Positions 10,986 to 53,092 of a stretch of DNA of 64,000 nt are shown here, one piece after another; within the stretch, counting starts at the first letter, position 1; each line of letters starts with the position of its first letter. Source of the stretch: Minisyncoccota bacterium (GTDB lineage: Bacteria > Patescibacteriota > Minisyncoccia > Phycocordibacterales > CAIZLB01). A program made the translations under genes and the position numbers. The notes beneath the pieces are model-generated. The model did no database searches. It had not been told where the DNA came from and was given only the letters and a program-made list of their open reading frames with translations. The stretch lies in assembly GCA_021734945.1 (NCBI GenBank), contig JAIPIA010000002.1, forward strand, positions 45,594-109,593. Direction: 5' to 3'.

Positions 10986-11360
10986 TCACTTACTACTATT
11001 AAAGAGTTTCAACTTCTCAAATCTAGAAAGTCTCTTTACTTCCGCTTCCCTCTTCCGTGATTCACTGAGAGTCTTGAATGTCTCGTGATATACCAAACTC
11101 ACTGGTCGTCGAATCTTTGTGTAATGAGCACCTTGCTTAGAAGTATTATGTTGTACAAGACGCTTTTCGAGATTGTTAGTTGCACCAACATACAAAGTTT
11201 CATCAGCGCATTTTAAAATATATGTGAAATAAACCTCAATCAGTAACTTTTTACGTACACCTGCACGCGCCTTTAATCCCTCATATGTTTTCAATCCCGC
11301 ACGTGATTCTAATCTTGCGCGTACCTTTAATTTAGATTTTTCTTTGTCTTTCTTTGGCAT
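10986..11360 (-). CDS. GIY-YIG nuclease superfamily protein (UPF0213-like) with basic N-terminal tail
   Basis: YILKCADETLYVGATNNLEKRLVQHN GIY-YIG core. Confidence 0.65.
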   Translation of the reverse strand: MPKKDKEKSKLKVRARLESRAGLKTYEGLKARAGVRKKLLIEVYFTYILKCADETLYVGATNNLEKRLVQHNTSKQGAHYTKIRRPVSLVYHETFKTLSESRKREAEVKRLSRFEKLKLFNSSK

Positions 11361-11607
11361 CTTTAAATAAAGTTTTAAATATTTTCTCTAACATTACGGG
11401 GTTTAACTTATGCTCATCGGCAAGGATTTTAATTTTCGCAAGAATTTCTTTTTCTCTCTGTGGCTGATGTATTGGAACTTTATTTTCCTTTTTATATAAA
11501 CCCACTAATGGCATCAAAGACTGTCTCTTTGAGATTAGCTCAATAATTTTCATATCAAAATTATTTATCTTTTGTCTAAGGTTTTGGATATCTATTTTTC
11601 TTTTCAT
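11332..11607 (-). CDS. Chorismate mutase (AroQ class, monofunctional)
   Basis: 91 aa with the AroQ pattern R..I..ID..I..L...R......G..K......P...P.RE..IL. Confidence 0.65.
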   Translation of the reverse strand: MKRKIDIQNLRQKINNFDMKIIELISKRQSLMPLVGLYKKENKVPIHQPQREKEILAKIKILADEHKLNPVMLEKIFKTLFKDAKERQRKI

Positions 11608-11686: not shown

Positions 11687-12364
11687 CTATTTTATAAGGA
11701 TATCTTTCTGACCGGGTCTTTTCAGCACTAACTCTACTTCAGGAACTTCAAGTTCCAAATTCCCTACTATTTTTTCCGCGACACTTTCAACTGACATAAA
11801 TTCGTCTATATTCTCTGGTGGTTGTTCATCAAATAAACCAGTTTTTATACCTCCAGGATAGACACCAACAATTTGTACACCTGAGCCCTTGAGCTCATCC
11901 CTAACGGCATTTGTCAGCCCTCGCAGTGCATACTTGCTAGACACATATATTGAACCACTTGAACCATTCATTCCATCAAAGGCAGTAGTAGAAATTATAT
12001 TCATTATCGTACCACTCCCACTTGGTTTCATGAATTTTAGGGCAGACCGTATTCCATACATAGTACCAAATACATTTACCTGAAAAAGCTTATTTGCTTT
12101 CTCCATACTAGTATTTTCAATATTTTCACGTGGAAGCCATATACCTGCATTATTTATCCAAACGTCTATTCTGCCAAACTTGGAAAAGACATCTTCTGCA
12201 ACACGCTGGAGATCCGACTCTTTTGTTACGTCAGCTTGATGCGAAGCACCAGCTATATCGCATATAACAACATGAGCCTCTTTCTCAATCAAAATATTAG
12301 CCACTGCTTTCCCTAAGCCGCCCGCTCCACCCGTTATTACTATTACTTTGTCTTTGAGGTTCAT
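11687..12364 (-). CDS. SDR-family oxidoreductase
   Basis: TGGAGGLG Rossmann motif, NNAG, YxxxK catalytic context. Confidence 0.85.
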   Translation of the reverse strand: MNLKDKVIVITGGAGGLGKAVANILIEKEAHVVICDIAGASHQADVTKESDLQRVAEDVFSKFGRIDVWINNAGIWLPRENIENTSMEKANKLFQVNVFGTMYGIRSALKFMKPSGSGTIMNIISTTAFDGMNGSSGSIYVSSKYALRGLTNAVRDELKGSGVQIVGVYPGGIKTGLFDEQPPENIDEFMSVESVAEKIVGNLELEVPEVELVLKRPGQKDILIK

Positions 12365-23219: not shown

Positions 23220-26200
23220 CTAAGCCCTCTCAACAGCAAACAACTCAGCCTGCTCAAGGACTGTCTCAGTAGCAGACTCTTGAAAATCTGGCGGGTAACC
23301 ATACTGATTTAGTAGTCTTTTTACCATTACACGCATACGTGCACGCGCTGATTCTCGAACGCTCCAATCTATAGTGGCGTTTTCCTGTACTTTTCCGACC
23401 AAGATTCGGGCGAGTTCTTTTAACTTGTCGTCACCAAGCACTTTCTCAGCACTTTCATTTTGAGCAAGTGCATCATAAAATGCAATCTCATCCTTAGATA
23501 GACCTAGTAAATCCCCTCTTTTATCAGCTTCTTTGATATCTTTTGCAAGTTTAATCAACTCTTCGATAACTTGTGCCGCAGTTAGCAAGTTGTTTTGATA
23601 TCTTTTAATAGCTGCGTGCAACATTTCTGAGAACTTTCTTGCTTGCACTGCGTTCATTTTACTTCTACCACGAAGCTCATCGTTCAAAATCTTCTTTAAA
23701 AGTTCAAGACTAATATTCTGGTGTTTCATCGTTCGTATTTCTTCCAAGAATTCTTCTGACAAAATAGAAATATCAGGTTTCTTGATTCCTGCAGCATCAA
23801 AGATATCTACCACTCCATGCGACACTACCGCCTTATCCACAATCTGTCGGATAGTCGATTCAACATCTATATCTCGTGAACCACCATCGCTTGCCAACTT
23901 TATCAATCGAGCTTTTACCGCTTGGAAAAATGCTACTTCTTCTCGAATAGCAATAGCTCTTGGGTTTGGCATTGCTAATGCAAAAAGCTTTGAGAGTGCT
24001 ATTACCTCTTTTATAAATCTTTCTTTTCGATTATCACCAGCACGTACATCAAGCAAAAACTCTTCTGTTTCAAGAATGGCTCGAAGCTTTGTCTGCGCAT
24101 CATTGATTAGCACTACTTCTTTTGGTGTAGATCCCTTTATATAGTCGTATGAAAGGCCATCTAAGATACCGTATATCGTTTCCAGTTTACCGAGCATATG
24201 TGGTACGACGTCAGTATTTTGTTCAGTGACCATCTCACCTTTTCCTCCACTCTCTGTGTATACAGCAAGAGCCTCTTTCAGGTCTGATGCGATACCAATA
24301 TAATCAACAATCAATCCTCCCGGCTTATCCTTAAATACTCGATTCACTCTCGCAATTGCCTGCATGAGGTTTGCACCCTGCATCGGCTTATCAATATACA
24401 TAGTGTGCATGCATGGCACATCAAAACCCGTGAGCCACATGTCTCGAACAATCACCAACTTGAGTTCGTCTTTTGTGTCTTTAAATCTATTTGCCAAATC
24501 CTTACGATCATCTTTAGTTGTATGATGCGGCTGAAACTCTACAGGATCAGAGGAAGTCGCAGTCATTACAACTTTGAGCGCCCCACCAGTTTTTGCATCA
24601 CTATGCCATTCTGGTTTGAGTGCAATAATCGCATTGTATAGATCTACCGCAATACGTCGACTCATAGCAACAATCATTGCTTTTCCATCAAAAGCTTCCT
24701 GTCGAGCTTCAAAGTGAGTGACGATGTCTTGTGCAATGTCAGCAACACGTGCACCATGTCCGACTACCGCTTCAAGCTGTGCCCATTTTGCTTTGGCTTT
24801 TTCGCTCACAGTAGATTCTTCGCTTTCTAATATTTCATCTACAGTTCTATCTAGCTGTGCTTTCGCTCCTTCATTGAACTCAAGCTTTACCAGTCTTGAT
24901 TCATAACTAATAGGCACCGTTGCACCATCCTCTACCGCCGCTTTAATGTCATACACATCAACATATTCACCAAAAACATTTCTAGTATTCGCATCTTCTT
25001 TCTCAATAGGTGTTCCAGTGAATCCAAGGAATGATGCATTCGGTAATGCATCACGAACATACTTTGCAAATCCATAACTTACATATGCTCCACCCTCATT
25101 TTCACGCACTCTCGCAGTAAATCCATACTGTGAACGGTGTGCTTCATCAGCCATTACTATAATATTTGAACGATCTGAAAGTGCCTCATATTCCACCTCA
25201 CCTTCCATCAATGAAAATTTCTGTATTGTTGTAAATATTACTCCACCTCCATTTGTAGCCAAAAGTTTTCGGAGATCTGCCCGATCTTGTGCCTGCACAG
25301 GGTCTTGTCGAAGTAAATCTTTTGCACCAGCAAATGTATCAAAAAGTTGTTGATCGAGATCATTTCTATCTGTAAGAACTACGATGGTTGGATTGTTAAG
25401 TTGCTGAACAATTTTTCCAGCATAAAACACCATAGACAGTGACTTTCCTGATCCTTGAGTGTGCCATACTACTCCAGCTCGTTTATCACTCCTTATCGCT
25501 TGTATAGTTGAATTGATGGCTTTTTGTACTGCAAAATACTGATGGTATGCAGCTGTCTTTTTGATAGTCTTCATTTCAAGTGATCCATCAGAAAGTGTTT
25601 TCTTTTCAACTTCAAAGACAGTGAAATTTCGAATGAGATCAAGTAACACTTGCGGATGAAGCATACCTTGTACAAGTGTTTCAATTTGTGGAGTTGTTCG
25701 ATTTGCATCACGAGTACCATTGATAGACTTCCATGCTAAGAATCGATCGAATCCACTTGTAATAGTTCCTGTACGCGCATCAAGTCCATCTGAAATAACT
25801 AACAATCCATTGTATGCAAATAAATCTGGAATAGCTTTTTGGTAGTTTGTGAGCTGGGTAAATGCCTTATGAACAGTTGCCTCTTCATTCTTTGCGTCTT
25901 TGAGTTCTATGACCGCAAGTGGTAATCCATTCACAAAAAGTACAACATCAGGAATCTTATCTCGTTCCAGTCCTTTTATATAAAATTGATTTGTAGAAAT
26001 GAGGTCATTCTCAAGAAAATCATTCCACTCAATAATCTGGACATCCTTACCTCTCATGTGACCATCTTCGAGCACTTCTACTTTTACACCTTCGACAAGT
26101 AGCTTGTGCATAGCTCGGTTGTTCTCTACGACGTTGTCAGTCAATGATGCAGTACGGAGTATTTCATTGACCGCAAATATGCAAACATCCTGCGATAGGT

Positions 26201-26363
26201 TTGGATTAAGATTGGTCACAGCAGACATAAGGCGATCCTTGAGAACTACCTGCGATAGATCTGGACGTTCTGGCTCTAATGCTTCAGGACTTACATAAAC
26301 AAAGCCGACTTTTCCAAGAAGTTCGAGTGTAAGCTGTTCAATTGAGGATTCGTTGAGGGGCAT
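23220..26363 (-). CDS. hsdR: Type I restriction enzyme R subunit
   Basis: 1047 aa. HsdR N-terminal domain, SF2 helicase motifs ([15 protein letters not shown]), C-terminal domain. Confidence 0.95.
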
Positions 26364-26488
26364 GTGTGTATGTGGTCAGAGTACCACACTTTTTGTAGAG
26401 GTGGAAGGTTTGAATTTTTTACCTCTCCATGCAAATTAGATTTAATATTCTTAATCTCAAAATTTGAACAGCTAAACAATATACTAAA

Positions 26489-26761
26489 TTACCAATTTCT
26501 TTTGAAATGCCAACTCTCAAAATTCTTATATTCAAACTCCTTATAATCAATAGGATTAAATAGTTCGTTAGACACGATAACAGATGAAACATCCCTCAAG
26601 AAAGTTTTTTTAGCGTGCATTCCTTCTGGGCTATCTACTGATACATAATAAATTGAATATCCATTAAAACCATCATCCGGATTTTCTCCACAATCTAGCG
26701 GTATACATTTCCGTGCCTTAGAATTACCATCTTTGTCTGTAATTATTAGCCCTAGAATCAT
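26489..26761 (-). CDS. Small hypothetical protein between hsdS and hsdR
   Basis: 90-aa ORF with no motif recognised. Position suggests co-transcription. Confidence 0.3.
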   Translation of the reverse strand: MILGLIITDKDGNSKARKCIPLDCGENPDDGFNGYSIYYVSVDSPEGMHAKKTFLRDVSSVIVSNELFNPIDYKEFEYKNFESWHFKRNW

Positions 26762-26824
26762 TTTTTATTAATTCCATTTTTAAATTCTTGTTTTAATTGT
26801 TCTTGATTTTGCATTTTAAATTAA

Positions 26825-27997
26825 TTAACTTGTAAATATAACACCTAATAATTTATCTCTCAGTCTTGACAGTGTCTGAATTTCTAAAAAATTATTGAAA
26901 ACTTTTTCATCTGTAGAAATGATAATTTGATTAAATCCTTCCTGAATTTCTCTAGATGGAACAATGACTTTAATATTCCTGAAATCATCCTTATTAATTG
27001 AACCAAACACCGTACCGCCTGCTTCAAATTTTTGAATATCTGATTGAGTATTTTTCATCATGTAGAAACAGAAAGATTTGAGATCTGAAGATACACCAGC
27101 AACACCTCGACCAAGACAGCATACTTCGGTTGCTTGATTTATATCACCGACAGGGGCCCTTACACTAACCAATACATCAAACCTATTCGCGGTCCTTTTT
27201 GGCTCAGTCGTATAGAGACGAACAGATGGAAAACGATTACCGAAATCAGTACGACCTTGATAGAAAATAATTCCTTCTCCATCTTCATTATAACTTTCAC
27301 CAGATGGTGACTGTCCCATAGTAATCTTAAATAACTCGCCCAACTTTCCAAGCCCCCACCCTTCCGGCAAACCGTTCACTATCTCCACATCCTCGTGTCC
27401 ATGGAATCGAAAATTGACAAACCACTCCTGAAACAAAGTCTGTGCCATTTTCTCAAGAGTTGTATTCTCACGACGAAGAAGTTCAATTTTATCGTCGAGG
27501 GAGCAGAGGATCGAAGCTATTTCCTTTTGTTCTTCTATGAGGGGAAGTCTAAATTGTTTATTTGCTAATATGTCTGTTTGTACACGCTGTCTCCCTGATG
27601 TCCCCGTCATAGATCTAATTGCAATGTTTCGGAAAAAAGGAGAAATTATAAAGTAATAAATAAATTTCGAATCACTTACATGCTCTTTTTCACGAAAGAC
27701 AAGATATTCAGTTGAGCCGAAGCCAACCTGATCATTCTCAAGAAAATCGACAAAAGCAGTCTTACCATTTTCTAGACATGGAGTAATACGAGCCATCAAT
27801 GTATCTCTATTTTTAAACTTTTGCCCTCCATTAAATTCTTTAAGCTCAAAGCTTGAAACCTGTCTTGTGAATGGATTGATTTTTTCCATCGGTAGATATG
27901 GAGCTATATTTTTTTTGGGAATTTTTTCAATTGGATTGATTTGCAAAAAACTTGAGAGCCTTATATCTTTCCAATTCTCACGTGATGATATGTTCAT
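26825..27997 (-). CDS. hsdS: Type I restriction-modification specificity subunit
   Basis: 390 aa. Two target-recognition domains separated by conserved coiled-coil repeats (LPLIEEQKEIASIL..LDDKIELL). Confidence 0.85.
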   Translation of the reverse strand: MNISSRENWKDIRLSSFLQINPIEKIPKKNIAPYLPMEKINPFTRQVSSFELKEFNGGQKFKNRDTLMARITPCLENGKTAFVDFLENDQVGFGSTEYLVFREKEHVSDSKFIYYFIISPFFRNIAIRSMTGTSGRQRVQTDILANKQFRLPLIEEQKEIASILCSLDDKIELLRRENTTLEKMAQTLFQEWFVNFRFHGHEDVEIVNGLPEGWGLGKLGELFKITMGQSPSGESYNEDGEGIIFYQGRTDFGNRFPSVRLYTTEPKRTANRFDVLVSVRAPVGDINQATEVCCLGRGVAGVSSDLKSFCFYMMKNTQSDIQKFEAGGTVFGSINKDDFRNIKVIVPSREIQEGFNQIIISTDEKVFNNFLEIQTLSRLRDKLLGVIFTS

Positions 27998-28001
27998 AAT
28001 A

Positions 28002-28568
28002 TTATTCAGAAGTTATTTTATAGATACCCTGCCCGATTGAATATAAACAAAAAAGCACCGTAGCAGTTATTATAAATAGAACAGTTTCCTTGCAAAAAAT
28101 ATGATTTGAAAACGCAAGCGAAATAATACAAACACTTATCACACAAAAATTAAAGATTAAAATAAACTTTAATTTTCCTAAAATATCGGACTTTTTATTT
28201 ATATGTTCTCTGTATAAATTCTCAGTGAAAAAATCAATGGAATAGTTTATTAGAGTATCACTCCGTACGGTGCTCTGAATACCAACTCTAGAGGGATCAT
28301 TGGTTTTAATCTTTACTAATTCAGAAAACTTTCTTAAAATCTTCGAATCAGGCATTGTGTATAAAACCCCTAGACTAATCGGTTCATAATCTTTTGTATT
28401 AGCTGCAGCATAAGAATATAATTTTATAACCGCTAATCTTGTCTCAGATAGTATTTTCTCAAAATCTTGTATCTTCCAAACCACAAAAACGGCAAATAAT
28501 CCCGCGAGCGCGGCAAGGACTTGAGCTGATGTACTTAATGTATAAAACCAAATATTATTAAAATCCAT
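28002..28568 (-). CDS. Membrane protein of unknown function inside the type I R-M operon
   Basis: 188 aa. TM helix at the N-terminus and two at the C-terminus. 4-bp gaps to both neighbours. Confidence 0.4.
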   Translation of the reverse strand: MDFNNIWFYTLSTSAQVLAALAGLFAVFVVWKIQDFEKILSETRLAVIKLYSYAAANTKDYEPISLGVLYTMPDSKILRKFSELVKIKTNDPSRVGIQSTVRSDTLINYSIDFFTENLYREHINKKSDILGKLKFILIFNFCVISVCIISLAFSNHIFCKETVLFIITATVLFCLYSIGQGIYKITSE

Positions 28569-28572
28569 ATAT

Positions 28573-28767
28573 TTATTTCTTCTTCACCCCATACTTCGGT
28601 TCAGTCTCTCTATCTGCAAGTTCCTTACCTGACCAACGACCAATTCGCACCTTACAATCATTACAAAGTATTTCGCTGACTCCATCGTACGCATCAGGAG
28701 TACCTGGCACATACTGCACCATTATAATATTTTCACTTTTACATTTTTTACAAGTTTGTTTTTCCAT
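28573..28767 (-). CDS. Small zinc-ribbon protein (CxxC ... CxxC)
   Basis: 64 aa with CKKCKS and CNDCKV pairs. Confidence 0.45.
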   Translation of the reverse strand: MEKQTCKKCKSENIIMVQYVPGTPDAYDGVSEILCNDCKVRIGRWSGKELADRETEPKYGVKKK

Positions 28768-28775
28768 AAAATATA

Positions 28776-29390
28776 TTAGGAATTAATTTTTAATAATCGT
28801 AACTGCTCGACTAGCAGATATACCGTTGTGAATGGATCTCGCTTGAGAGGTGACTCTGTTCCATCTTTAGTATACTGTTTTTCCAAATTCTTAGCATTAC
28901 GCATTGCATCAAATTCTCGCCCCTTCACCAGAGAATACATGTCGATATTTTTCTCATATTTTCGACCGATATGCTTGGTGAGTTTCCCTGCAAATGCATC
29001 ACGGCCAAGTGATGTTTGTAAAAATTCGAAGTGGAGAATAAACCACAACTCAAAGCATTCATTAGAATACGCTACCTGTATACCATTATCTCGTGCCAAC
29101 CGTATTGAACGATCAAAATGCTCGTGATCATCCCGATCAAAGACAACCCACCATTCTGTTTCAAAAGTGGATTTGTGATTTGAACTTTCAGCATCCTTTT
29201 CTTCCATCACATATTTTACGAGTGACTGGGTACTTCGACTCGTCGGATGAATCTGAATATCAATCTGTGTTAAACCCAACTCATCCTTAATAGCTCCAAA
29301 ATAATTAGGTTCAGTTTTTTCTCCTTCAGTATAGATACGAATAACCTTTTTAGGTTTCAAATTACTTGGTTTTCGCGGGAACCTATTCAT
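28776..29390 (-). CDS. RloB-like (AbiLii-type, Toprim-like) protein
   Basis: IRIYTEGEKTEPNYF N-terminal signature plus WWVVFDRDDHEHF and AYSNECFELWFILHF blocks characteristic of RloB. Confidence 0.8.
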   Translation of the reverse strand: MNRFPRKPSNLKPKKVIRIYTEGEKTEPNYFGAIKDELGLTQIDIQIHPTSRSTQSLVKYVMEEKDAESSNHKSTFETEWWVVFDRDDHEHFDRSIRLARDNGIQVAYSNECFELWFILHFEFLQTSLGRDAFAGKLTKHIGRKYEKNIDMYSLVKGREFDAMRNAKNLEKQYTKDGTESPLKRDPFTTVYLLVEQLRLLKINS

Positions 29391-29392
29391 GC

Positions 29393-30640
29393 TTATTTTA
29401 GAACTGAACGGATAAATGGTAATGCTCCGAATCGACCTTCGAGATACTTTTTTGAAAACTCAGTATCATTTCGTATATCAAACTCTCCAAGAGAAAAGAG
29501 CTTACTACCATCAAACTCATCTTTCTCTGTGAACCAAAATTGATCTTTTATAAAATCATCCTTGTATGACAAAAGGCTCGTATCGTGTGTTGTTACGATA
29601 AGTTGTGCACCATTTTTATTCATTTCTTCTGACTCAAAGAGATCTATTATAAACTTGGTTAATTTAGGGTGGAGACTATTATCGAATTCATCAACAATCA
29701 TAATCTTACCGTTTTGGAGAGTATCTATGACTGGACCAAGTACAGAGACAAACTTTTGTGTACCAGTAGATTCCTTATCGAAAGGAACCTCGAATGACCC
29801 CGTCACCTTATGGTCATCATCATGAACTGGATGCTCAAAAAAGAGCATGTTACTTTTTTGTTTTGTAGCTGAAGCAGAGAACTCACCAAAATTATTTTTA
29901 ACATTAATTGCAGGACGTTCTACTTCCTCTGATCTTCCATTAATAATACAAAAATCTGCATGTTTGAGATACGTCAGGATTTGCTCTTTATATACAAGAT
30001 CAGTAGCAAATTTCTTAGCAGTAAAATCTTGATAGGTTTGGTAAGCAACACCAGATATAATATTCAAGCCGTCCCTAATTGCATTAAGAATAGATAAAGA
30101 CATCTGATCGTTCCATTGTGCAGCTACCGAGAGAAATAAAGTCTCCTTGCGCATCTTTTTTACGAGATCCTTATCAATGCTTTTATCCAAAACGATATCC
30201 TGTCCATTTCTCACAAAGAGCTCTTCTGTATTTCCATTTGCTAAAACCTTTACAAAAGACTCTTCAACAATATGATCTTTTACAAATGAAAAGAAATATA
30301 GATAGGTACCGTCATATTTGCCGTCAATAGAAAATGTGAACCAAAAAGATGTAGGTTTCTTTTGTGTAGTAGCTGATCCCGAAAATGGAGTATACGGCAA
30401 CTCCGCATCCACAGGATTATTTGAAGAAAGCATAATCCCGTTTTTCATAATAGTAAGAGCCTCCAGAATAGTAGTCTTTCCTGAAGCATTCGGACCATAA
30501 ATGAAAGAGGTTTTGAGTAGATTTTCACCGTTACTTTCAAAGGTATGGCGGTCGTTTTTTCGAGCAACCATTGAAAAAGTAGCCTTATTTTTAAAGGTTT
30601 TAAAGTTTTCGAGAGAGAATTCAATAAGTGAAATTTGCAT
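29393..30640 (-). CDS. AAA_21/ABC-like ATPase (RloA / AbiLi-type)
   Basis: Walker A GPNASGKTT, Walker B IMIVDEFDNSLHP, QLIVTTHD. A 3-bp gap to the RloB gene. Confidence 0.8.
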   Translation of the reverse strand: MQISLIEFSLENFKTFKNKATFSMVARKNDRHTFESNGENLLKTSFIYGPNASGKTTILEALTIMKNGIMLSSNNPVDAELPYTPFSGSATTQKKPTSFWFTFSIDGKYDGTYLYFFSFVKDHIVEESFVKVLANGNTEELFVRNGQDIVLDKSIDKDLVKKMRKETLFLSVAAQWNDQMSLSILNAIRDGLNIISGVAYQTYQDFTAKKFATDLVYKEQILTYLKHADFCIINGRSEEVERPAINVKNNFGEFSASATKQKSNMLFFEHPVHDDDHKVTGSFEVPFDKESTGTQKFVSVLGPVIDTLQNGKIMIVDEFDNSLHPKLTKFIIDLFESEEMNKNGAQLIVTTHDTSLLSYKDDFIKDQFWFTEKDEFDGSKLFSLGEFDIRNDTEFSKKYLEGRFGALPFIRSVLK

Positions 30641-30853
30641 ATATTTTGCTATTTATTTCTTTAATTACTCTTAAAGTATACATATTTGAAACAAATTTGC
30701 AAGTTTTTTACATATTTTAATTATTTAACATTATCCAAAACTCTCATTTAACATCGATTCCATTTGACCCTTATAAAATAAGGATTAAATAGAATTATGT
30801 AAAAATATTATCTATCACGACTCCAATATCAATTAATATCAGATAGTATTAGA

Positions 30854-32431
30854 TTACAACTCAATCCCCACCTTCGCCAGCTGCTTCTTTATTTCCTCAT
30901 TCAACCTCACCTCCTCAGCCATCTGTTCCTTGAGCTCTGCTGTCAATTTTGCCATCTTTTCTTCAAATGGAACACCATCGTCTATAGCATCTGTGATACC
31001 AACGTATCGTCCCGGAGTAAGCACATAGTTATGCTTTTGAATATCAGCTATTGTTGCAGATTTTGAAAACCCTTTTTTGTCTTCATAGGCACCACCTGTT
31101 CGCCATTCGTGATATACCTTTGCAATCATTGCCACATCATTATCTTCAGGATCAATTGAGCCATCAGAAAATTCTCGATGTGTTCTGTCAGCCATAAATC
31201 CAACTTCTGATGCATCAATAAACAACACCTCATCTGCTTTTTTACGATCAGTGTTTCCTACTCTCTTTCTTGATAAAAACCAAATACACGCTGGAATACC
31301 CGTATTGTAAAAAAGTTGTTTTGGAAGCATTACAATACAATCAACAAGATTTGCATCGACAAGCGCTTTTCGAATATCCCCTTCTCCACTTGATTGTGAT
31401 GAAAGTGAACCATTTGCAAGTACTGTTGCCATTATACCGTTTGGCGACAAGTGATACAGCATGTGCTGAATCCATGCAAAGTTAGCATTACCTGTTGGCG
31501 GTTTACCATATTTCCATCGAGGATCATTTTGTAGTAGTTCACCACTCCAATCAGAGATGTTGAATGGTGGATTCGCGAGGATATAGTCCGCTTTTAGATC
31601 TTTGTGTTCATCTTTAAGAAACGATCCTTCTGTATTCCATTTAATACCTGTACCATCAATTCCTCGAATCGCCATATTCATACGTGCAAGTCGGTATGTC
31701 GTCTGATTACTTTCTTGTCCATACACCGCAATATCATCTACACGACCAGAATGTGCTGTAACGAATTTTTCAGACATAATAAACATTCCTCCAGAACCAC
31801 AGCACGGGTCATAGATTCGCCCTTTGTACGGTTCAATCATTTCTACCATCAGTTTTACAATTGATTTCGGAGTATAGAACTGTCCTCCTTTTTTACCTTC
31901 TGCATTTGCAAATTCTCCTAAGAAATATTCATATACACGACCAAGTAAATCTTTTGCTTTTGAAGCAGTATCGCCAAGTGAAATATTGCCGATCAAATCG
32001 ATCAATCCACCAAGAGAATTTTTATCAAGATTTGGTCGAGCAAATACTTTTGGAAGGATCCCCTTAAGCTCTGGGTTTAGTTTTTCGATATGTTCCATCG
32101 CCATGTCGAGATCTTCACCAATAGTAGGAAGTTTGGCTCGTCCATGGAGATAGCTCCATCGTGCCTCCTTTGGTACATAAAACACATGTTCAGCACGATA
32201 TTCATCAATGTCTTCAGGATTAGCCCCTTGTGATTTTTGATCTGAAAGTTTCTGATAGAGTTCCTCAAATGAATCTGATATGTATTTTAAAAATACAAGA
32301 CCAAGAGCTACATTTTTATATTCTGCAGCATCAATGTTTTTACGTAATTTATCAGCAGCTTTAAAAAGCTGTTTTTCGAAGGGTTCTGTTTTGTTTCCAA
32401 CTGTTTTACCCCCGGCCGGACGATCTTTCAT
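30854..32431 (-). CDS. hsdM: Type I restriction-modification N6-adenine DNA methyltransferase subunit
   Basis: HsdM N-terminal domain. AdoMet motif DPCCGSGGM. Catalytic LANPPFN. Confidence 0.95.
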
Positions 32432-34513: not shown

Positions 34514-34930
34514 TTAAATAGTATTAAGGAATTTTCGCAGTATATCAGCAACATCATTAATAGTACTATATTCAGCAACTTTTATGTACGCATTACCTAC
34601 CAACATAGCCGATAGCTTCTTTTCAGCCGTTGTTCTTCTAAGACACAGTACTGATTTATTCATACTCTGTGCTTGCCCTATTTCATACCCAACACCGAGA
34701 CTTGGAGTACTCACTTCCGCAACCACAACATCTGATTCTCGTACCCACTGCATATCACGCTCGTATATATAGGAATCGCTAACTATTGTCTCACCTACAT
34801 TTGAAAGTGACTTATCACCGATATGTTCAGTCAGTACAGTGCCAAAATTGCTGAGTATTTTAATAAACTCTAGGTACAGTTCTTGATCTTCACGCCCTCC
34901 CCTTATTGATCCTGCAAAGTAAATTTTCAT
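34514..34930 (-). CDS. 2'-deoxynucleoside 5'-phosphate N-hydrolase / nucleoside 2-deoxyribosyltransferase-like protein (DNPH1/Rcl family)
   Basis: MKIYFAGSIRGGREDQELYLEFIKILSNFGTVLTEH closely follows the DNPH1 N-terminal consensus. Confidence 0.7.
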   Translation of the reverse strand: MKIYFAGSIRGGREDQELYLEFIKILSNFGTVLTEHIGDKSLSNVGETIVSDSYIYERDMQWVRESDVVVAEVSTPSLGVGYEIGQAQSMNKSVLCLRRTTAEKKLSAMLVGNAYIKVAEYSTINDVADILRKFLNTI

Positions 34931-34992
34931 AAATTTGATTATTTAATTAGTTTGATGATTGATGCGTTAGTGTTATACCTTCCTCGCAATTT

Positions 34993-35625
34993 TTATTGCA
35001 CCATTTTTCTCTTCGCACAAAAACATTCTTTCTCATGATCATTCACCATACCTATAGCCTGCATGTATGCAAAACAAATAGTTGCACCAACGAATTTAAA
35101 ACCACGTTTCAACAAATCCTTACTCATCACTGCACTTATCGCAATAGCTTCGTAACGACGTGTATGAGAAATAATTTTTCCATTTGAAAAACTCCAGATA
35201 TAGGCATCGAAGGCTCCGCTAAAACTGTTGAGATCATCCTCGTTTTTGCTCGCCATTTTATTTACCTTAGCAGCCGCTTTCTGTGCCGCAAGAATAGTCA
35301 AATACGCTTTTGCATTTCCTACAACTGCTTTTATTTTCAAACGATTTCGAATAATCCCGTCATTGTTCATAAGCTCTGCCTGCATCTCCTCTGTAAACTT
35401 CACTAACTTTTTTGCATCAAAGTTTTTGAAAGCTTTGCGATACGCATCCCTCTTTTTCAAAACCGTGAGCCAACTGAGACCTGCTTGAGCACCCTCAAGA
35501 TTGAGCATTTCGAAAAGCATTTGATCATCGTGAACGGGCACTCCCCATTCTTCATCATGGTACGTTGTGAGAAGCTCATGCGTATCAGCCCAAGGACAGC
35601 GTTTTTTTGTGAGAGGTTTTTTCAT
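34993..35625 (-). CDS. tag: DNA-3-methyladenine glycosylase I
   Basis: RCPWA ... YHDEEWGVP ... LEGAQAGLSW motifs and C-terminal Cys/His cluster. Confidence 0.8.
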   Translation of the reverse strand: MKKPLTKKRCPWADTHELLTTYHDEEWGVPVHDDQMLFEMLNLEGAQAGLSWLTVLKKRDAYRKAFKNFDAKKLVKFTEEMQAELMNNDGIIRNRLKIKAVVGNAKAYLTILAAQKAAAKVNKMASKNEDDLNSFSGAFDAYIWSFSNGKIISHTRRYEAIAISAVMSKDLLKRGFKFVGATICFAYMQAIGMVNDHEKECFCAKRKMVQ

Positions 35626-41442: not shown

Positions 41443-42138
41443 TCACTGTGGGAGATGTTCAGTGTGGATCGTGATCATTTGAATCATACCAATGAAATCC
41501 ATGTCTTCAGGAGGTGTTGCACCAGCTGCTTGTTCGGCATGATTATCAATTTGTGCCGCAGCCGTCATGCAGCCCAGATAAGACCTGCGTCGATAACCAT
41601 CGAGACCTAAATTTTGAGACACAAAGATGGAATGAGCTTGATACTTCATAATAGTATTCATCTGCACACCGAATGCCCCCAAAGCTCCAAATGGAACTTC
41701 CTTCAATTTTTCACCATACTTTCTTTGTAGCATTCTACGCAAGGCAAAACCGATTGCACCCCAGCCCCAAACAAGTGCACGAAGATTAATTTCCTCGAGA
41801 CTAAAACCAACTGTCGTTGCTACAGTTTCAATAACTGTTGGACGTATCACGAAGTAATGCGTCCAGTTCTGATTACCTAGAGGCTTATTGTCGAAGACTG
41901 CAATCGTGCCACATACAGGGACATAATCGATCGCAGCTCCCCAAGCATGTTCTTGGGAATTAAAGTAAAGAGTATTGCTCCATGCGATACGGATTTGCTG
42001 ACCCGGGAAGATCATATTGAATAGCGTCTCAATGTTCAAAATCACAAACTCCTTGAACCACTCGTGATTCTCGAGTTTGATAGGTTGATACTGCGCGCAA
42101 AGGGACTTGAGCGCCGGACTAAGTTGTTCGGGTTTCAT
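41443..42138 (-). CDS. Hypothetical protein (GC-elevated gene with CA-rich leader)
   Basis: 231-aa ORF. Local GC is visibly higher than in neighbours. No motif recognised. Confidence 0.4.
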   Translation of the reverse strand: MKPEQLSPALKSLCAQYQPIKLENHEWFKEFVILNIETLFNMIFPGQQIRIAWSNTLYFNSQEHAWGAAIDYVPVCGTIAVFDNKPLGNQNWTHYFVIRPTVIETVATTVGFSLEEINLRALVWGWGAIGFALRRMLQRKYGEKLKEVPFGALGAFGVQMNTIMKYQAHSIFVSQNLGLDGYRRRSYLGCMTAAAQIDNHAEQAAGATPPEDMDFIGMIQMITIHTEHLPQ

Positions 42139-42410: not shown

Positions 42411-43172
42411 TTAATTTTTCCACAACATAGAAAATATCTGCCTATAGAAATCTGCCACGGTTTTGTCACGGACAACTATCACCTCCCTCTTCTTATGAAT
42501 GATAGTCTTTGTTAAATCACCACAAATCTCAATCGAAATACGAGGAGAAAAAAGTTGATGTGATATTTTTTGTCTCTTGAATCCATATTTTTTATCATCT
42601 TCAATAAAAGGTGCATCATAAGAATTAGAAGGAGTTAAAAGTTTCATTGTAAATCCCAACTTGTATAGATCACGAAAATGTTCTGGGTATTCACTGCCTA
42701 CTTTGAGGTCTTTGCTTACAGCCGCATAAAAAGCCACAATTTCTTTATCCTTCTCAATACTTCGAAGTCCGTAAGAAAGCCCTTGAGCTAAAGCCCCTTT
42801 ACCTTTAAATACAATAGTATCCGTGTCTGGATGAGAAAGCTTTGGAAGTAAAGTAAGAAGATTTCTCATATTTTCGTTACTCTTACTTTGAAACTCCTGA
42901 ATAAATTCATGAGGATCTTTTGCAACAAAAACTTGCTTCTTCGCATGAGGAACAACAAGAACAAGTCCTCTTTTTCGTAGCTCTTCCATAATTACATAAA
43001 CTGTTGGACGTTTCACTCCAGATTCCTTTGCAATTTGATATGAAGTTGCCTCACCCAATTTATAAAGGGCAATATAAATGGATGCCTCTTTTTCATTGAG
43101 ACCTAAAGCAACAAGGCTTTGAGTTAGTTTATTCATTACTCCACATACTACTTTCTTTATATAAATAGTCAA
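42411..43172 (-). CDS. TrmB-family transcriptional regulator (possible alternative start at 43133)
   Basis: N-terminal winged HTH LGLNEKEASIYIALYKLGEATSYQIAKESGVKRPTVYVIMEELRKRGLV. Divergent from the downstream + strand operon. Confidence 0.7.
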   Translation of the reverse strand: MTIYIKKVVCGVMNKLTQSLVALGLNEKEASIYIALYKLGEATSYQIAKESGVKRPTVYVIMEELRKRGLVLVVPHAKKQVFVAKDPHEFIQEFQSKSNENMRNLLTLLPKLSHPDTDTIVFKGKGALAQGLSYGLRSIEKDKEIVAFYAAVSKDLKVGSEYPEHFRDLYKLGFTMKLLTPSNSYDAPFIEDDKKYGFKRQKISHQLFSPRISIEICGDLTKTIIHKKREVIVVRDKTVADFYRQIFSMLWKN

Positions 43173-43265
43173 TATTTATGACTACTTTTTATAATTTTCA
43201 ACCGTCCTTACATTGCAAGCTTTTATAGAATCTGCACTGAATATGCAAGACGAAAAGTACCTTAC

Positions 43266-43931
43266 GTGTTTTTATTGAATCAGAAAAGTACATTAACAAC
43301 GAAACCAAATACTATGACTAACCTACTTGAAAAACTCACTAAGGAGAATATCAGAGATCTTCTTGATCCAAAATTAGGAGCAATCACAGTGCCTATTAAC
43401 GCAGATTGCTTCGTTGAGATTCAGAAAGCATTTACAAAGTTCAATCAACAATTCACAAAAGCTGCATCAAATCCACCCAAGACACTAGTTTCGAACTACA
43501 GCTTTGCCTGCTTAGATATAACAAGACAAGACAGTGTAGCAAAATGCTTTATAGATTTCGCTAAGCAGTTAGCGAGTGAACTCAACGATGAAATTAATCG
43601 TCACTTCAATTTGTCAGAACAAATCGAGTTTGATGATTTATATTTTACGCGTTATGACGTATCTGAAATGGGCGTCGGCCCGCACAGAGACGTAAACTGT
43701 AAAAATTTTGTAGTCGTATTAGTCCTTGAGGGATCAGCACCATTTTATGTCTGTGAGGATAAAGAAATAGCTGGGAAAAAAAGTGTTTCGGCAAAGTTGG
43801 GCCAAATAATGATTATGAGAGCTCGAAACTTTCTCGATCTACCAGCTCCCCTACACTATGTTGGCGCAATTAAAAGTTCACCAATGTTGCAGTTTGGAAT
43901 GAGGCAATACATCAACAAACCAAATCACTAA
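43266..43931 (+). CDS. Putative 2OG-Fe(II) oxygenase-like (DSBH) protein, paralog 1
   Basis: HxD ... H triad (PHRD ... LHYVG) and RQ about 15 aa after the distal His. Paralogous to the next gene. Confidence 0.45.
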   Translation: MFLLNQKSTLTTKPNTMTNLLEKLTKENIRDLLDPKLGAITVPINADCFVEIQKAFTKFNQQFTKAASNPPKTLVSNYSFACLDITRQDSVAKCFIDFAKQLASELNDEINRHFNLSEQIEFDDLYFTRYDVSEMGVGPHRDVNCKNFVVVLVLEGSAPFYVCEDKEIAGKKSVSAKLGQIMIMRARNFLDLPAPLHYVGAIKSSPMLQFGMRQYINKPNH

Positions 43932-43946
43932 AGAGGAAACAAAATT

Positions 43947-44645
43947 ATGGAAGAACATATATCAAAATTAAGATTTGATCTGACAGCCAGCAACGTCGAA
44001 GAGTTACTCAATCCGAATCAAGGAGTGACTGTTATAAAGCCGCAAGGCGATATTGCAAAACTTTTGGAAGAACTAAGAAAACAAGCTCCAACTTTCAATT
44101 TTGTAAACTCACTTGCTGTCACAACAACAAACGTCAAACAGAACTTCAAGGCATTTGGAGACTTTCAAGATGGTGACATCTGGACTCAACTTGGGAAAGT
44201 AGTATCCGGTACACTACGAGACGGGTTTGAAAAATTAGGATACGCAGATGTGTTTCAGCAACCGTTAGCACTCGATGACCTAACACTTCAATACTATCCT
44301 CAAAGTAAACCTGAAGATTTGTTTGCATTGTCGCCCCACAGAGATCAGAGTGGTTTTATCAATCTAGTAGTAGTTTTCTTGGTTTATGGTCCGTCTGCTT
44401 TCTTTATTTGCAAAGACAGAGAGGGTACGACACCTATTGAGCCACAAGAAATTCAATCAAATCCTGGGGATATAGTGGTGATGCGTGCAGGAGGATTCAA
44501 TAAAGATACTTCTCTTCGACCGTGTCACTTTGTTGGTAGAGTTGAAAATTCGGAAGGACGACTAACTCTGGCGCTTCGGCAAATAACAGACGACAAGACA
44601 AAATTGCAAAAACTCGAATGCTTCTTTGATCAAAAGTTCGCTTAG
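43947..44645 (+). CDS. Putative 2OG-Fe(II) oxygenase-like (DSBH) protein, paralog 2
   Basis: PHRD ... CHFVG ... RQ with the same spacing as paralog 1. Conserved blocks (VVV.LV.G..F..C.D.E, G.I..MRA..F). Confidence 0.45.
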   Translation: MEEHISKLRFDLTASNVEELLNPNQGVTVIKPQGDIAKLLEELRKQAPTFNFVNSLAVTTTNVKQNFKAFGDFQDGDIWTQLGKVVSGTLRDGFEKLGYADVFQQPLALDDLTLQYYPQSKPEDLFALSPHRDQSGFINLVVVFLVYGPSAFFICKDREGTTPIEPQEIQSNPGDIVVMRAGGFNKDTSLRPCHFVGRVENSEGRLTLALRQITDDKTKLQKLECFFDQKFA

Positions 44646-44684
44646 CAAAAGTTCGCTCGCGGATAGTATGTTAAAGGCTAGTTA

Positions 44685-44722
44685 GGAAGAGGTGTTACTA
44701 GCAACAGCACCTCTTCTTTTCA
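44685..44722 (+). terminator. Rho-independent terminator (GAAGAGGTG ... CACCTCTTC plus T4)
   Basis: Perfect 9-bp inverted repeat followed by TTTT, between paralog 2 and folE. Confidence 0.7.
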
Positions 44723-44748
44723 TATTATTAATTTATAAGACCCACACT

Positions 44749-45378
44749 ATGAATACAAGAAATAAAAACATAAAACCGTCTAAATTTGTATTACCTAAAA
44801 AAAATAATGTATCTTCTTATGAATATGAGTTATCAGGAAATATAAGAAACATAATCCAACATTTAGGTGAAGATGCTAATCGTGAGGGTCTTGTAAAAAC
44901 TCCTGAACGATATGCAAAAGCCTTACTCTATCTAACCTCGGGATATAGAAATGAAAAATCAGTACTGGAAGATTGTGCAAATGCAATCTTTGATGAAAAA
45001 GTAACGTCAGTTGTAGCTGTAAATAATATTGAATTTCATAGTTTGTGTGAACATCATTTACTCCCCTTCTATGGACACGTCAGCATCGCCTTTCTACCAG
45101 ATAAAAACGGTAAAATTTTAGGTCTAAGTAAATTTGCTCGACTTGTAGATGTATATAGTCGCCGACTACAGGTTCAAGAGCGCCTGATACAAGACATCAT
45201 GAGTGCCACCTGGAAATTACTCAAACCACAAGGTATTGCGATTCGTATTGAGGCACAGCACATGTGCATGATGATACGAGGTGTCGAAAAACAATTTTCA
45301 AAAACTGCAACGTACTCGTATAGAGGTCAATCAAAATTCGAACAAACAATCAAAGGAGAATTAAAGTATGAAAAATAA
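44749..45378 (+). CDS. folE: GTP cyclohydrolase I
   Basis: LVKTPERYAKALLYLTSGY, CEHHLLPF, QVQERLIQDI motifs. Start chosen at the ATG after the terminator hairpin (the longer 44692 ORF would include the terminator). Confidence 0.85.
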   Translation: MNTRNKNIKPSKFVLPKKNNVSSYEYELSGNIRNIIQHLGEDANREGLVKTPERYAKALLYLTSGYRNEKSVLEDCANAIFDEKVTSVVAVNNIEFHSLCEHHLLPFYGHVSIAFLPDKNGKILGLSKFARLVDVYSRRLQVQERLIQDIMSATWKLLKPQGIAIRIEAQHMCMMIRGVEKQFSKTATYSYRGQSKFEQTIKGELKYEK

Positions 45379-46177
45379 AATGCCAAAAATTGTCGGGGTG
45401 CTCAATATTTCACCTGAAAGCGCTAATAATAAAGCTATAACGACTGAAGACATCATTGAGCGAATGAGAAATATGGTTAATCATGGTGCTGATGTCATTG
45501 ATGTCGGCGCCCAATCAAGTCGCCCAGGAGTAGATCAGATTTCTCTAGAAGAAGAAACTAGTCGATTAAAAGGAGTGGTCTTGAAAATTAAAAAAGAGTT
45601 TCCTTTTGTTCAAATATCAATCGACACGACGAGACATGAAATAGTCCAGCTAGCTTTGGATGAAGGTGTAACAATCGTAAATGATATTTCAGGCGGAAGA
45701 TTCGATGAACACATTCTTGAAAAAGTTACTCAATGCAATGCACAATATGTTTTAATGCATTCTCAGGGTTTATTTTCTGAAATGCACAAAAAATATGAAT
45801 ACGTCGATGTAGTAACTGAAATCACAAATTATTTCAGCCAGCGGATTAAGGTTTGTCTTGAAGCTGGTATAAAAAACGATAATATAATTCTTGATCCAGG
45901 AATCGGCTTCTCTAAATCAGGGGACCAGAATCTAGATATAATAAGAAGGCTTAGTGAATTTAAAGAACTTGGTTTTCCTCTCTACATTGGACTATCTCGC
46001 AAGAGATTCATTGGTACAATAATTGGTGACGCCTCCAGTGATCCAAGCGCTCGTGATAATGCAACTACTGTATTCCATACGCTTTGTATCCAGCAAGGCG
46101 TCGACTACATACGTACTCACAATGTTAAGACACTAAAAGAATGCACTCAAGTACTTGAATCTATACAGCAAAGCTAG
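45368..46177 (+). CDS. folP: Dihydropteroate synthase
   Basis: Pterin-binding fold with ISIDTT, NDISGG, ILDPGIGFSK, GLSRKRFIG motifs. Overlaps the folE stop by 11 bp. Confidence 0.85.
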   Translation: MKNKMPKIVGVLNISPESANNKAITTEDIIERMRNMVNHGADVIDVGAQSSRPGVDQISLEEETSRLKGVVLKIKKEFPFVQISIDTTRHEIVQLALDEGVTIVNDISGGRFDEHILEKVTQCNAQYVLMHSQGLFSEMHKKYEYVDVVTEITNYFSQRIKVCLEAGIKNDNIILDPGIGFSKSGDQNLDIIRRLSEFKELGFPLYIGLSRKRFIGTIIGDASSDPSARDNATTVFHTLCIQQGVDYIRTHNVKTLKECTQVLESIQQS

Positions 46178-46270: not shown

Positions 46271-46723
46271 CTAAACAAACAAACTAGTTACAAACCCAAC
46301 CAAAACAAGAATCACGAGATTTGAAAGTATGTCTGAAAAGAATTTCTTCCAAGCGAGCTTACTGTCACAGTCACTACTCCAAAGTATTGCTGAACCAATA
46401 ATAGGCACCATAAAACAAAACCAATTGAGAACTATAAACCAAATAGCTGTTCCAAAAGGTACACCGTTCTCAGCGCTGAGTGTGATTATAAAGACTACGG
46501 CAAAAGCCGTAAGAAAAGAAAGTATCATTTGACCTAAGTACATTTTCCACATTTTTGGTTTTGCTTCCAGCATTTTTTTCTGCTGTTCTTCAGGTGATAA
46601 TTTATCAAAACCTAGTGCCTGCATATGTATCTTTCCCATTGGAGTCATTGGTGAATACCAGAACGTACCAACTACAGCCGCTATTACTGCACCAAGTATT
46701 GAAAGTAAAATTATTGTTGTCAT
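46271..46723 (-). CDS. Small membrane protein (possibly DUF1761-like)
   Basis: 150 aa with 4 TM helices. The family guess is weak. Confidence 0.4.
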   Translation of the reverse strand: MTTIILLSILGAVIAAVVGTFWYSPMTPMGKIHMQALGFDKLSPEEQQKKMLEAKPKMWKMYLGQMILSFLTAFAVVFIITLSAENGVPFGTAIWFIVLNWFCFMVPIIGSAILWSSDCDSKLAWKKFFSDILSNLVILVLVGFVTSLFV

Positions 46724-52651: not shown

Positions 52652-53092
52652 TTATTTTCTATATTCTTCCCTAATCTCCATCCACATTCGCCCCATATGG
52701 TTCAAACCTTCCCCATGTTCCCCGTCATCCCAAAAGCCATCACCAGGTGGACCAGATACTATATGTTTTACTATCTTCAAATCACCCGAGTCTAGCAATG
52801 CTTTACGAACGTCTTCGTGCTGAGCGACTTTCATCTCCATTAATTCTTTCATTATCTTCAACTTATATTCCTCACTTTTGAACTCAGGAATTTGCAGATG
52901 CTTATATTTAGTAGATATTTCCCATGCTTTAACAGCACTAGTAGCACCCCGTATTTCTTCGATGATATTTATGTCTGTATATCTTTTGCACTGATAAGCA
53001 TGTTCGAGTGTTGGAAATATAACACCATCTATCTCAAGTGCGTGTCCCGTGTATGGAGAAAAGTATGTGTAAAAAATTTCTAGTGGGAGCAT
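52652..53092 (-). CDS. NADAR-domain protein (YbiA-like)
   Basis: FYTYFSPYTGHALEIDGVIFPTLEHAYQCKRY ... GDGFWDDGEHGEGLNHMGRMWMEIR matches the NADAR consensus. Confidence 0.7.
   Translation of the reverse strand: MLPLEIFYTYFSPYTGHALEIDGVIFPTLEHAYQCKRYTDINIIEEIRGATSAVKAWEISTKYKHLQIPEFKSEEYKLKIMKELMEMKVAQHEDVRKALLDSGDLKIVKHIVSGPPGDGFWDDGEHGEGLNHMGRMWMEIREEYRK

Follow-up and report, generated by a model that had tools for sequence, protein, structure and literature searches.

What are two adjacent oxygenase-like genes, here called A and B, doing between a divergently transcribed regulator and a folE-folP pair? The question is raised by one part of the window, i.e. the whole 64,000-nt stretch of DNA that was analysed, and it touches one of the best-mapped cofactor pathways, folate biosynthesis, whose dihydropteroate synthase (DHPS) step is an antibiotic target and in which we know of no Fe/2-oxoglutarate (2OG) oxygenase. 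The original prediction offered two answers: that the pair tailors a pterin or 7-deazapurine-type product of the downstream genes, or that it is an unrelated duplicated pair. All of the gene positions that it gave were borne out on the window (Table 1), and the 11-bp overlap of folE and folP is real (45368..45378). The open frame of A in full is 43266..43931. The frame of the regulator reaches a TTG at 43172, although the ATG at 43136 agrees better with the 240-249 aa of its orthologs, and for FolE the ATG at 44749 (209 aa) is more plausible than the listed GTG at 44692, because the latter lies inside a hairpin.

Table 1. Coordinates of genes and sites at the locus, numbered from the first letter of the window
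Feature	Position	Strand	Details
TrmB-family winged-helix regulator	42411..43136	-	ATG 43136 = 241 aa; divergent transcription
Palindrome TAGTCA-N7-TGACTA	43166..43184	.	perfect; overlaps -35 of promoter-like site
Promoter-like site	43166..43195	+	match 10/12
A (ORF1), Fe(II)-oxygenase-fold paralog	43314..43931	+	205 aa from NCBI start
B (ORF2), canonical-looking Fe(II)/2OG oxygenase	43947..44645	+	232 aa
Hairpin, intrinsic terminator or attenuator	44684..44718	+	13-bp stem, 9-nt loop
GTP cyclohydrolase I (FolE type I)	44749..45378	+	TIGR00063, PF01227
Dihydropteroate synthase (FolP)	45368..46177	+	TIGR01496
DUF1761 membrane protein	46271..46723	-	PF08570, E 7.5e-11; convergent with FolP

The proposed paralogy of A and B was confirmed by BLASTP (25% identity over 208 residues, E 1e-12) and by reciprocal phmmer cross-matches in every orthologous locus. 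The PHRD, (L/C)H(Y/F)VG and RQ motifs are found in both proteins and are invariant in 22 orthologs; their spacing, which had been called identical, is only similar (57 residues from His to His in A and 63 in B, and 16 and 17, respectively, from His to the Arg of RQ). The predicted models of both proteins contain the double-stranded beta-helix (DSBH) core that had been proposed, with the triad residues at the end of one strand and inside a later one. The facial triad (H131-x-D133/H194 in B, H124-x-D126/H181 in A) is likewise invariant in the 22 orthologs, and the pattern Y, HxD, R, H and R..RQ is near-invariant across 169 family members. In addition to the triad, B has Y117, R180, R205-x-T207 and R211-Q212, and its R205-x-S/T and R211 recur in almost all relatives. 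Besides its triad A keeps R197-Q198, equivalent to R211-Q212, and has Met or Val in place of the 2OG salt-bridge Arg; across the A subfamily Met, Val or Phe occupies the position of B R205 and R197 alone is retained.

The roles of these residues can be read by comparison with AlkB, in which Y122, R204, R210 and the motif RxNxTxR have been described (PMC8058185), and with which the Tyr and the R-x5-R-Q of the A/B family align in register. The distal Arg of the original prediction, that of RQ, matches AlkB R210; the canonical salt-bridge residue is AlkB R204, whose equivalent is R205 in B and is lost in A. B would be the catalytic 2OG oxygenase, one that binds Fe via H131/D133/H194 and 2OG via Y117, R205 and R211, whereas A, with the Fe triad kept and the R204-like Arg lost, would be a partner subunit or use a different co-substrate.

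No characterised family had come to mind for the pair, and this held: Pfam, NCBIfam and PDB sequence searches gave no above-threshold match. PF03171 (2OG-FeII_Oxy) scored 15.6 bits against B (cut-off 23, E 0.02) and did not match A in the Pfam search, and no relative of known structure was found in the PDB at E<=1 even with a 55-sequence profile. AlkB itself (PF13532; E. coli AlkB) differs in several respects: the hhalign probability is just 8.5%, three of the 55 family members match at sub-threshold level (E ~2e-4), the Asn of RxNxTxR is absent, the distal His and the Arg are 17 residues apart as opposed to 11 in the A/B family, and the AlkB context is ada/alkB repair rather than folate biosynthesis. 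Prolyl-4-hydroxylase/PHD-type enzymes (6t8m, 6f0w, 4iw3) resemble the family in structure only (8-16% sequence identity); none of A, B and the 55 relatives has a P4Hc-type Pfam match, and these enzymes have a single last-strand Arg or Lys where the A/B family has two arginines and, as neighbours and fusion partners, small-molecule pterin enzymes. From the paralogous 2OG-oxygenase heterodimer TlxI/TlxJ (PDB 7vbq) the pair differs in that A retains its metal triad and one lineage here carries B without A. The structural neighbours include small-molecule enzymes that act on phosphorylated nucleoside-like substrates (PasI and PolD). On these models A and B are paralogous members of an unannotated clade with the predicted Fe(II)/2OG-oxygenase fold, a domain that forms >600 clusters at 50% identity.

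Both downstream genes encode what had been predicted. FolE is a GTP cyclohydrolase I (TIGR00063, 198.4 bits, cut-off 181.6; PF01227, E 2e-60), its CEHH and later Cys being readable in the translation, and the DHPS-like gene is folP (TIGR01496, 271 bits, cut-off 162.6). N22, D96, N115, D185, S219-R220-K221, R255 and H257 of FolP (E. coli numbering) are invariant in the alignment with E. coli FolP, and this equivalog-level DHPS with intact catalytic residues argues against a 7-deazapurine or queuosine product. Neither the scanned ORFs of the window nor the related loci contain queD, queE or queC, and a queuosine role was rejected. Loop 1 of FolP, by contrast with E. coli, is degenerate (SPESANNKA vs TPDSFSDGG), so that the SFSDGG motif is missing from the window protein; in the five FolP orthologs from loci with both A and B, the Phe position is occupied by A, E, L, F or Q, and DG is replaced by NN. 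The loop-1 Phe of DHPS helps to form the pABA pocket.

The order TrmB-A-B-FolE-FolP recurs in five loci with wholly different flanks, and one lineage has the variant TrmB-B-FolE, without A; B lies immediately upstream of FolE in six loci. Other arrangements join the domain to folate enzymes directly: TrmB-FolP-DSBH-FolB in Saccharibacteria, TrmB-FolB-DSBH fusion-FolP, and a DHPS-DSBH fusion followed by FolB and a separate HPPK gene. About 15 of the 80 best loci of a metagenome scan are FolB-DSBH fusions, which far outnumber DHPS fusions and in which E43, Y75, E95 and K120 of the FolB domain are invariant. DHPS was the commonest family (4) among 89 immediate neighbours, followed by HPPK (2), and an HPPK or HPPK-DHPS fusion adjoins stand-alone family members. 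A majority of the distant stand-alone members, however, lack any neighbouring fol gene, and the family may thus have begun with a different substrate. A scan of GTDB species representatives returned no locus for the B subfamily and two for the Saccharibacteria-type alignment, and in a broad-profile homolog search FolB and DHPS words dominated, with few additions.

Multifunctional folate enzymes are known as FolB-FolK (SulD), HPPK-DHPS and FolB-FolK-FolP (Fol1). The DSBH domain fills the same slots, at the C-terminal side of FolB, joined to DHPS, or in a gene between those for FolP and FolB, but is not itself HPPK, which has a gene of its own behind the DHPS-DSBH fusion. The idea that the domain stands in for FolB, FolK, FolE or FolP was rejected because it co-occurs with each. 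Elsewhere in the window phmmer found no FolB or HPPK, nor did Pfam among the ORFs scanned; about a dozen further ORFs look from their sequences like restriction-modification, two-component and surface proteins. A wider tie to the aminotransferase and methyltransferase genes upstream was rejected as they are not kept in orthologous loci; those beside a distant member in locus L011 encode proteins unrelated to the window's.

The divergent regulator belongs to the TrmB family as predicted, with PF01978 on its N-terminal winged helix (residues 22-87, E 2e-16, 59.9 bits, cut-off 25.6). Outside these residues there is no Pfam match to the C-terminal sugar-binding domain of archaeal TrmB, and against the TrmB equivalogs of NCBIfam the protein reaches no more than 26-33 bits, where the cut-offs are 500-650. 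It is the best-conserved gene of the module (orthologs 370-408 bits vs 527 for self) and is found beside every fol/DSBH module examined. The palindrome of Table 1 is the sole zero-mismatch match to its pattern in the window. By chance a 12-base pattern should turn up fewer than once in a window of this length, so the argument for it rests on recurrence: the palindrome forms the invariant block when seven intergenic regions are aligned, and it is present in full on both strands in the TrmB-operon spacer of L001-L006, L008, L014, L015 and L017, with L007 giving a one-strand match only (second half TGACGT). It is probably the operator, and TrmB would bind it over the A-B promoter.

The "strong terminator" that had been placed after B is a hairpin followed by a short and interrupted T run (TTCATATT); the 3' arm of the stem ends in CTTCTT. 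A simple hairpin scan skipped this element because its loop is >8 nt. A hairpin with a U-tract stands at the same place, with different sequences, in L001, L003, L004, L006 and L007. The idea of a riboswitch, whether in the B-folE gap or in the 5' region, was rejected because Rfam gave no credible match at E<=1 (a single unrelated viral element, E 0.18, was sub-threshold); the element between B and folE is a plain hairpin and U-tract. A terminator-like hairpin between A-B and folE-folP is what would be expected if the oxygenase pair were a chance neighbour. However, it lies only ~10-30 nt from the folE ATG, which leaves little space for a separate promoter, and it would instead throttle read-through into folE-folP. 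Five loci whose flanks have nothing in common share the five-gene order; this, together with the fusions to FolB and DHPS and the common operator, contradicts chance adjacency, and the unrelated-pair alternative is effectively refuted.

Synteny in unrelated flanks, the common operator and the fusions together point to a real link to folE-folP, as the first of the two original answers implied, and we put the probability that the A/B family is functionally part of the folate/pterin pathway at about 85%. A prolyl-hydroxylase- or AlkB-like oxygenase whose substrate is protein, RNA or DNA, and which is co-regulated or fused for a reason other than shared chemistry (e.g. as an O2 or 2OG sensor for control of the fused enzyme), is very unlikely: unless there is a common pathway, it is hard to account for independent fusions to two folate enzymes, adjacency to two more and an operator that divergent modules share, and no Pfam P4Hc or AlkB model matches at threshold.

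The fusions and fol neighbours suggest an undescribed oxygen-dependent step in making or recycling folate. The mechanism that we favour, which is speculative and somewhat unlikely, is hydroxylation of C9 (the carbon on pterin C6) in a pterin/folate-type molecule; it is predicted because all of the fused or adjacent partners bind 7,8-dihydropterin and because of the AlkB-like motifs. On an unusable pteroate or folate, C9 hydroxylation would equal N-dealkylation and would free pABA or pABA-Glu together with a pterin aldehyde; DHPS would then re-join the arylamine to freshly made pterin. We know of no enzymatic precedent for deliberate folate cleavage, and on functional dihydrofolate cleavage would be futile. 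We give a little less than even odds to the whole proposal, in which the clade belongs specifically to a DHPS-centred folate module under TrmB control and carries out this C9 chemistry. More broadly, the oxygenase may supply DHPS with the arylamine half of folate, a possibility that we put forward tentatively. It would do so as a third pABA synthase, one independent of chorismate, or by the release of pABA(-Glu) from unusable folates, and in CPR bacteria a TrmB-type regulator and an operator of its own would accompany it.

De novo synthesis of pABA, O2-dependent and independent of both chorismate and PabABC, has a precedent in a fol operon in CADD (CT610) of Chlamydia, and the shikimate pathway is usually missing from CPR bacteria. 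DSBH and DHPS form the invariant core of the TrmB modules, and the DSBH domain co-occurs with all four pterin-branch enzymes, which leaves the arylamine branch as the obvious gap; no pabA, pabB or pabC, and no folC or folA, occurs in any module with annotated genes. DHPS is also a sporadic trait in Saccharibacteria (PMC6031116). Such a synthase is nevertheless unlikely, as no plausible reaction is known by which a 2OG oxygenase could turn a common metabolite into pABA in one step, and the predominant fusion partner, FolB, is unrelated to pABA. A gene for chorismate mutase (11332..11607) in the window suggests that chorismate may be at hand, and many members have molybdopterin oxidoreductases and nitrite/sulphite reductase as contig neighbours, which suggests metabolically complete hosts. 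CADD, as an O2-dependent metalloenzyme in the folate operon of a reduced genome without pabABC, has the role proposed here, but is a helical heme-oxygenase-like di-metal protein without need of 2OG and has no sequence or fold relation to the DSBH family of A and B.

Action within the pterin branch, on dihydroneopterin or a hydroxymethyl-dihydropterin intermediate, would suit the commonest architecture, the FolB-DSBH fusion with its seemingly intact FolB domain, as well as the position of B next to FolE, the dihydropterin binding of the partners and the substrates of PasI and PolD. Candidate reactions are a FolQ-like, AtsK-style oxidative removal of triphosphate, side-chain oxidation or epimerisation, and synthesis of a tailored pterin. 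We regard this as doubtful, since the canonical route from GTP to dihydropteroate has no oxidative step, oxidised HMDP or dihydroneopterin would be aldehydes or ketones unusable by DHPS, the DHPS here retains its pyrophosphate-binding residues, and a hydrolytic step is not expected to use up O2 and 2OG.

Fusion to FolB and DHPS and co-regulation with FolE and FolP imply a missing piece of the pathway, which could be a new way to obtain a DHPS substrate, salvage or repair chemistry, or the synthesis of a novel pterin. Our literature searches returned nothing relevant on a 2OG oxygenase tied to FolB, FolP or pABA, or on folate synthesis in Patescibacteria. If the link is true, a previously unrecognised enzyme of folate metabolism would explain the sporadic folate autonomy of ultra-small CPR bacteria (Pacebacteria, Saccharibacteria), and an unannotated domain would gain a name.

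The DUF1761 protein is a possible accessory to the module, although the association is weak: no module other than this locus and L012 has such a gene, and in L012 it lies two genes upstream of a FolB-DSBH fusion.

The gene layout of the original prediction, i.e. two adjacent oxygenase-like genes (A and B) between a divergently transcribed TrmB-type regulator and folE-folP, was borne out with minor corrections by ORF listing and family scans, including the 11-bp overlap of the FolE (GTP cyclohydrolase I) and FolP (DHPS) genes; its interpretation was supported in part. In the databases A and B match exactly K9M11_02385 and K9M11_02390, annotated as hypothetical proteins in a MAG of Candidatus Pacebacteria (CPR). 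As predicted, A and B are paralogs (25% identity, BLASTP E 1e-12, Foldseek concordant), and both contain PHRD, (L/C)H(Y/F)VG and RQ, although the spacing of these motifs is similar (57 vs 63 and 16 vs 17 residues) and not identical as had been claimed.

Features of the folate module and of the remainder of the window
Feature	Position	Strand	Evidence or detail
TrmB-type HTH regulator	42411..43136/43172	-	PF01978, E 2e-16
A	43266..43931; 205 aa from ATG 43314 (NCBI annotation)	+	database entry
B	43947..44645, 232 aa	+	database entry
FolE	start most plausibly ATG 44749	+	TIGR00063, 198 bits vs cut-off 182
FolP	45368..46177	+	TIGR01496, 271 bits vs cut-off 163
Palindrome TAGTCA-N7-TGACTA	43166..43184		sole exact match within 64 kb
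Hairpin, then short T run	44684..44718		13 bp, between B and folE
DUF1761 membrane protein	46271..46723	-	directly after FolP
Type II chorismate mutase	11332..11607	-	CM_2, 91 aa, E 6e-21
Short-chain dehydrogenase and GIY-YIG protein	11687..12364 and 10986..11360	-	neighbours of chorismate mutase
Type I restriction-modification-like system	23220..32431	-	appearance of amino-acid sequences
231-aa ORF	41443..42138	-	
Nucleoside 2-deoxyribosyltransferase, methyladenine glycosylase, NADAR-domain protein	34514..35625 and 52652..53092	-	

The order TrmB(-), A, B, FolE, FolP recurred on four other contigs whose flanking genes differ completely, and one lineage carried the variant TrmB, B, FolE. Three other module types were found, i.e. 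TrmB, DHPS-DSBH fusion, FolB, HPPK (FolK; L009 and L018), TrmB, FolB-DSBH fusion, FolP (L015), where DSBH is the double-stranded beta-helix domain of the A/B family, and TrmB, FolP, DSBH, FolB, present at L014 and in a Candidatus Saccharibacteria MAG (L017); DHPS is unusual among Saccharibacteria (PMC6031116). Genomes with the module include the K9M11 Pacebacteria MAG, GCA_040384245.1, JGI 3300020125 (contig Ga0210606_10238134), Saccharibacteria CAYXWO01 and MAG GFS_9019. Among 55 diverse relatives the domain was fused to an N-terminal FolB in 11 and to an N-terminal DHPS in 2. The fused FolB domains have an invariant Glu/Tyr/Glu/Lys set, with the spacing of the catalytic tetrad of S. aureus aldolase. 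A metagenome scan gave 239 relatives, the best 80 of which included about 15 FolB fusions, with stand-alone genes adjoining FolP (3 loci), HPPK (1) or an HPPK-DHPS fusion (1). Synteny, fusions, alternative module types and metagenome neighbours thus establish a real link between the family and folate genes, and there is good support for placing it in the folate/pterin pathway (probability about 0.85). Of the 89 genes immediately adjacent in these 80 loci, Pfam assigned more to DHPS (4) than to any other family, and 2 to HPPK, the remainder being heterogeneous. A fol neighbour is absent from many distant members. That these proteins hydroxylate a macromolecule is improbable, and that they lie beside folE-folP by chance very improbable indeed. 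Substitution of the DSBH domain for FolE, FolB, FolK or FolP was ruled out, because it co-occurs with each of the four.

Ten residues were invariant in 22/22 orthologs (B numbering: Y117, H131, D133, G148, R180, P192, H194, V196, R211 and Q212). Authentic E. coli AlkB gave a statistically weak match to the family profile (E 0.004, probability 8.5%), which pairs Y117/Y122, H131-x-D133/H131-x-D133, H194/H187 and R205...R211-Q/R204...R210-Q; the aligned AlkB residues are ligands of Fe and of the 2OG 5-carboxylate (PMC8058185). With Fe/2OG-type residues present in the AlkB register, B looks like a competent 2OG oxygenase. R205-x-S/T occurs in B and nearly all wider relatives, whereas position 205 is Met, Val or Phe in the A subfamily. 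A retains the predicted metal triad but has no salt-bridge arginine. It might serve as a partner subunit in the manner of the TlxI/TlxJ heterodimer, or might use another co-substrate. In the variant locus (L007, 7100..9380) the A gene is missing and B has an N-terminal extension of ∼25 residues, so A is either dispensable or encoded elsewhere in that lineage.

For B, PF03171 scored below threshold in Pfam; A had no Pfam match, no NCBIfam model covers the domain, and no sequence relative was found in the PDB even with a 55-sequence profile. Close orthologs were scarce, B having 12 clusters and A 10 in a set of 5.8 billion sequences; an exhaustive profile search widened the family to 618 clusters at E<=1e-3 (312 at E<=1e-10), whose members are mostly ∼200 aa long. 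A full-text literature search found no description of such an oxygenase family. We place the A/B family inside the 2OG-oxygenase superfamily, as a variant whose pathway association is new and testable.

Its reaction, unlike its pathway, is not well supported. Since every partner binds a 7,8-dihydropterin and the motifs resemble those of AlkB, our preferred reaction is the hydroxylation, on a pterin or folate, of the carbon joined to C6. With a pteroate- or folate-type substrate the outcome would be an N-dealkylation freeing pABA(-Glu), which DHPS could then couple to newly made pterin, a scheme that we advance tentatively. The catalytic, pterin-binding and pyrophosphate-binding residues of the window DHPS are conserved, so the enzyme should still use hydroxymethyl-dihydropterin pyrophosphate. 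In characterised DHPS, loops 1 and 2 both contribute to the form of the pABA pocket. In an alignment with E. coli FolP (TPDSFSDGG), loop 1 was degenerate in all five A+B-type modules (SPESANNKA, SHESENNSA, SPESLNNAA, SPESFNNKT and SPESQNNQA), with Phe replaced in most and DGG changed to NNx; other DSBH-linked DHPS keep the Phe. In one DHPS-DSBH fusion (L009, 8001..9623) loop 2 reads TNHK where others have (S/T)RP(G/D/L), and the equivalents of Arg63-Pro64 are gone. The loop-1 changes may reflect an altered arylamine pocket. Two main rivals are each rather doubtful: a de novo pABA synthase, with a role like that of Chlamydia CADD, and an oxidative step of the pterin branch.

Pfam scans of most window ORFs found no FolB, HPPK, FolC, DHFR, PabABC or Que genes, and FolB and HPPK queries from related loci had no phmmer match in the window; the proposed 7-deazapurine/queuosine product thus found no support there. 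The stand-alone chorismate mutase is unexpected for a CPR genome and bears on the availability of chorismate, hence on classical pABA synthesis. At L014 a Mur-ligase-family protein (427 aa, Mur_ligase_M + Mur_ligase_C, 3810..5093) lies ∼2 kb upstream of the module; candidate identities for it are FolC and a cell-wall Mur ligase.

Of all the genes in the module, the regulator is conserved best. Seven TrmB-A spacers share an invariant block with the palindrome, which in the window overlaps the -35 of a promoter-like site. The full palindrome was also present in TrmB-operon spacers of L014, L015 and L017, whose gene orders differ; L007 has one half-site altered, and the palindrome was not found in the very AT-rich TrmB spacer of L009. 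At the site of the strong terminator predicted after B lies the 13-bp hairpin with its short T run. Five orthologous loci have a hairpin and U-tract of differing sequence at the same position, ∼10-30 nt from the folE ATG, so near that a separate promoter would hardly fit; we therefore read the hairpin, which matches no Rfam family, as a partial terminator that may set the A-B to FolE-FolP ratio.

The DUF1761 protein after FolP has a counterpart at L012 (6265..6690; phmmer E 1e-8 to 1e-11), which lies beside an MFS transporter and two genes upstream of a FolB-DSBH fusion; the protein may be a transporter-like accessory, or its position may be coincidental. The 231-aa ORF between an inositol-monophosphatase-family gene and TrmB had no Pfam or NCBIfam match and no counterpart beside TrmB at orthologous loci. 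The restriction-modification-like system comprises a 1047-aa HsdR-like helicase plus HsdS-like and HsdM-like proteins; several unrelated small ORFs break it up, one of them for an ATPase-like protein of 415 aa. The deoxyribosyltransferase, glycosylase and NADAR-domain genes serve nucleotide salvage and repair, and such genes are typical of reduced genomes.
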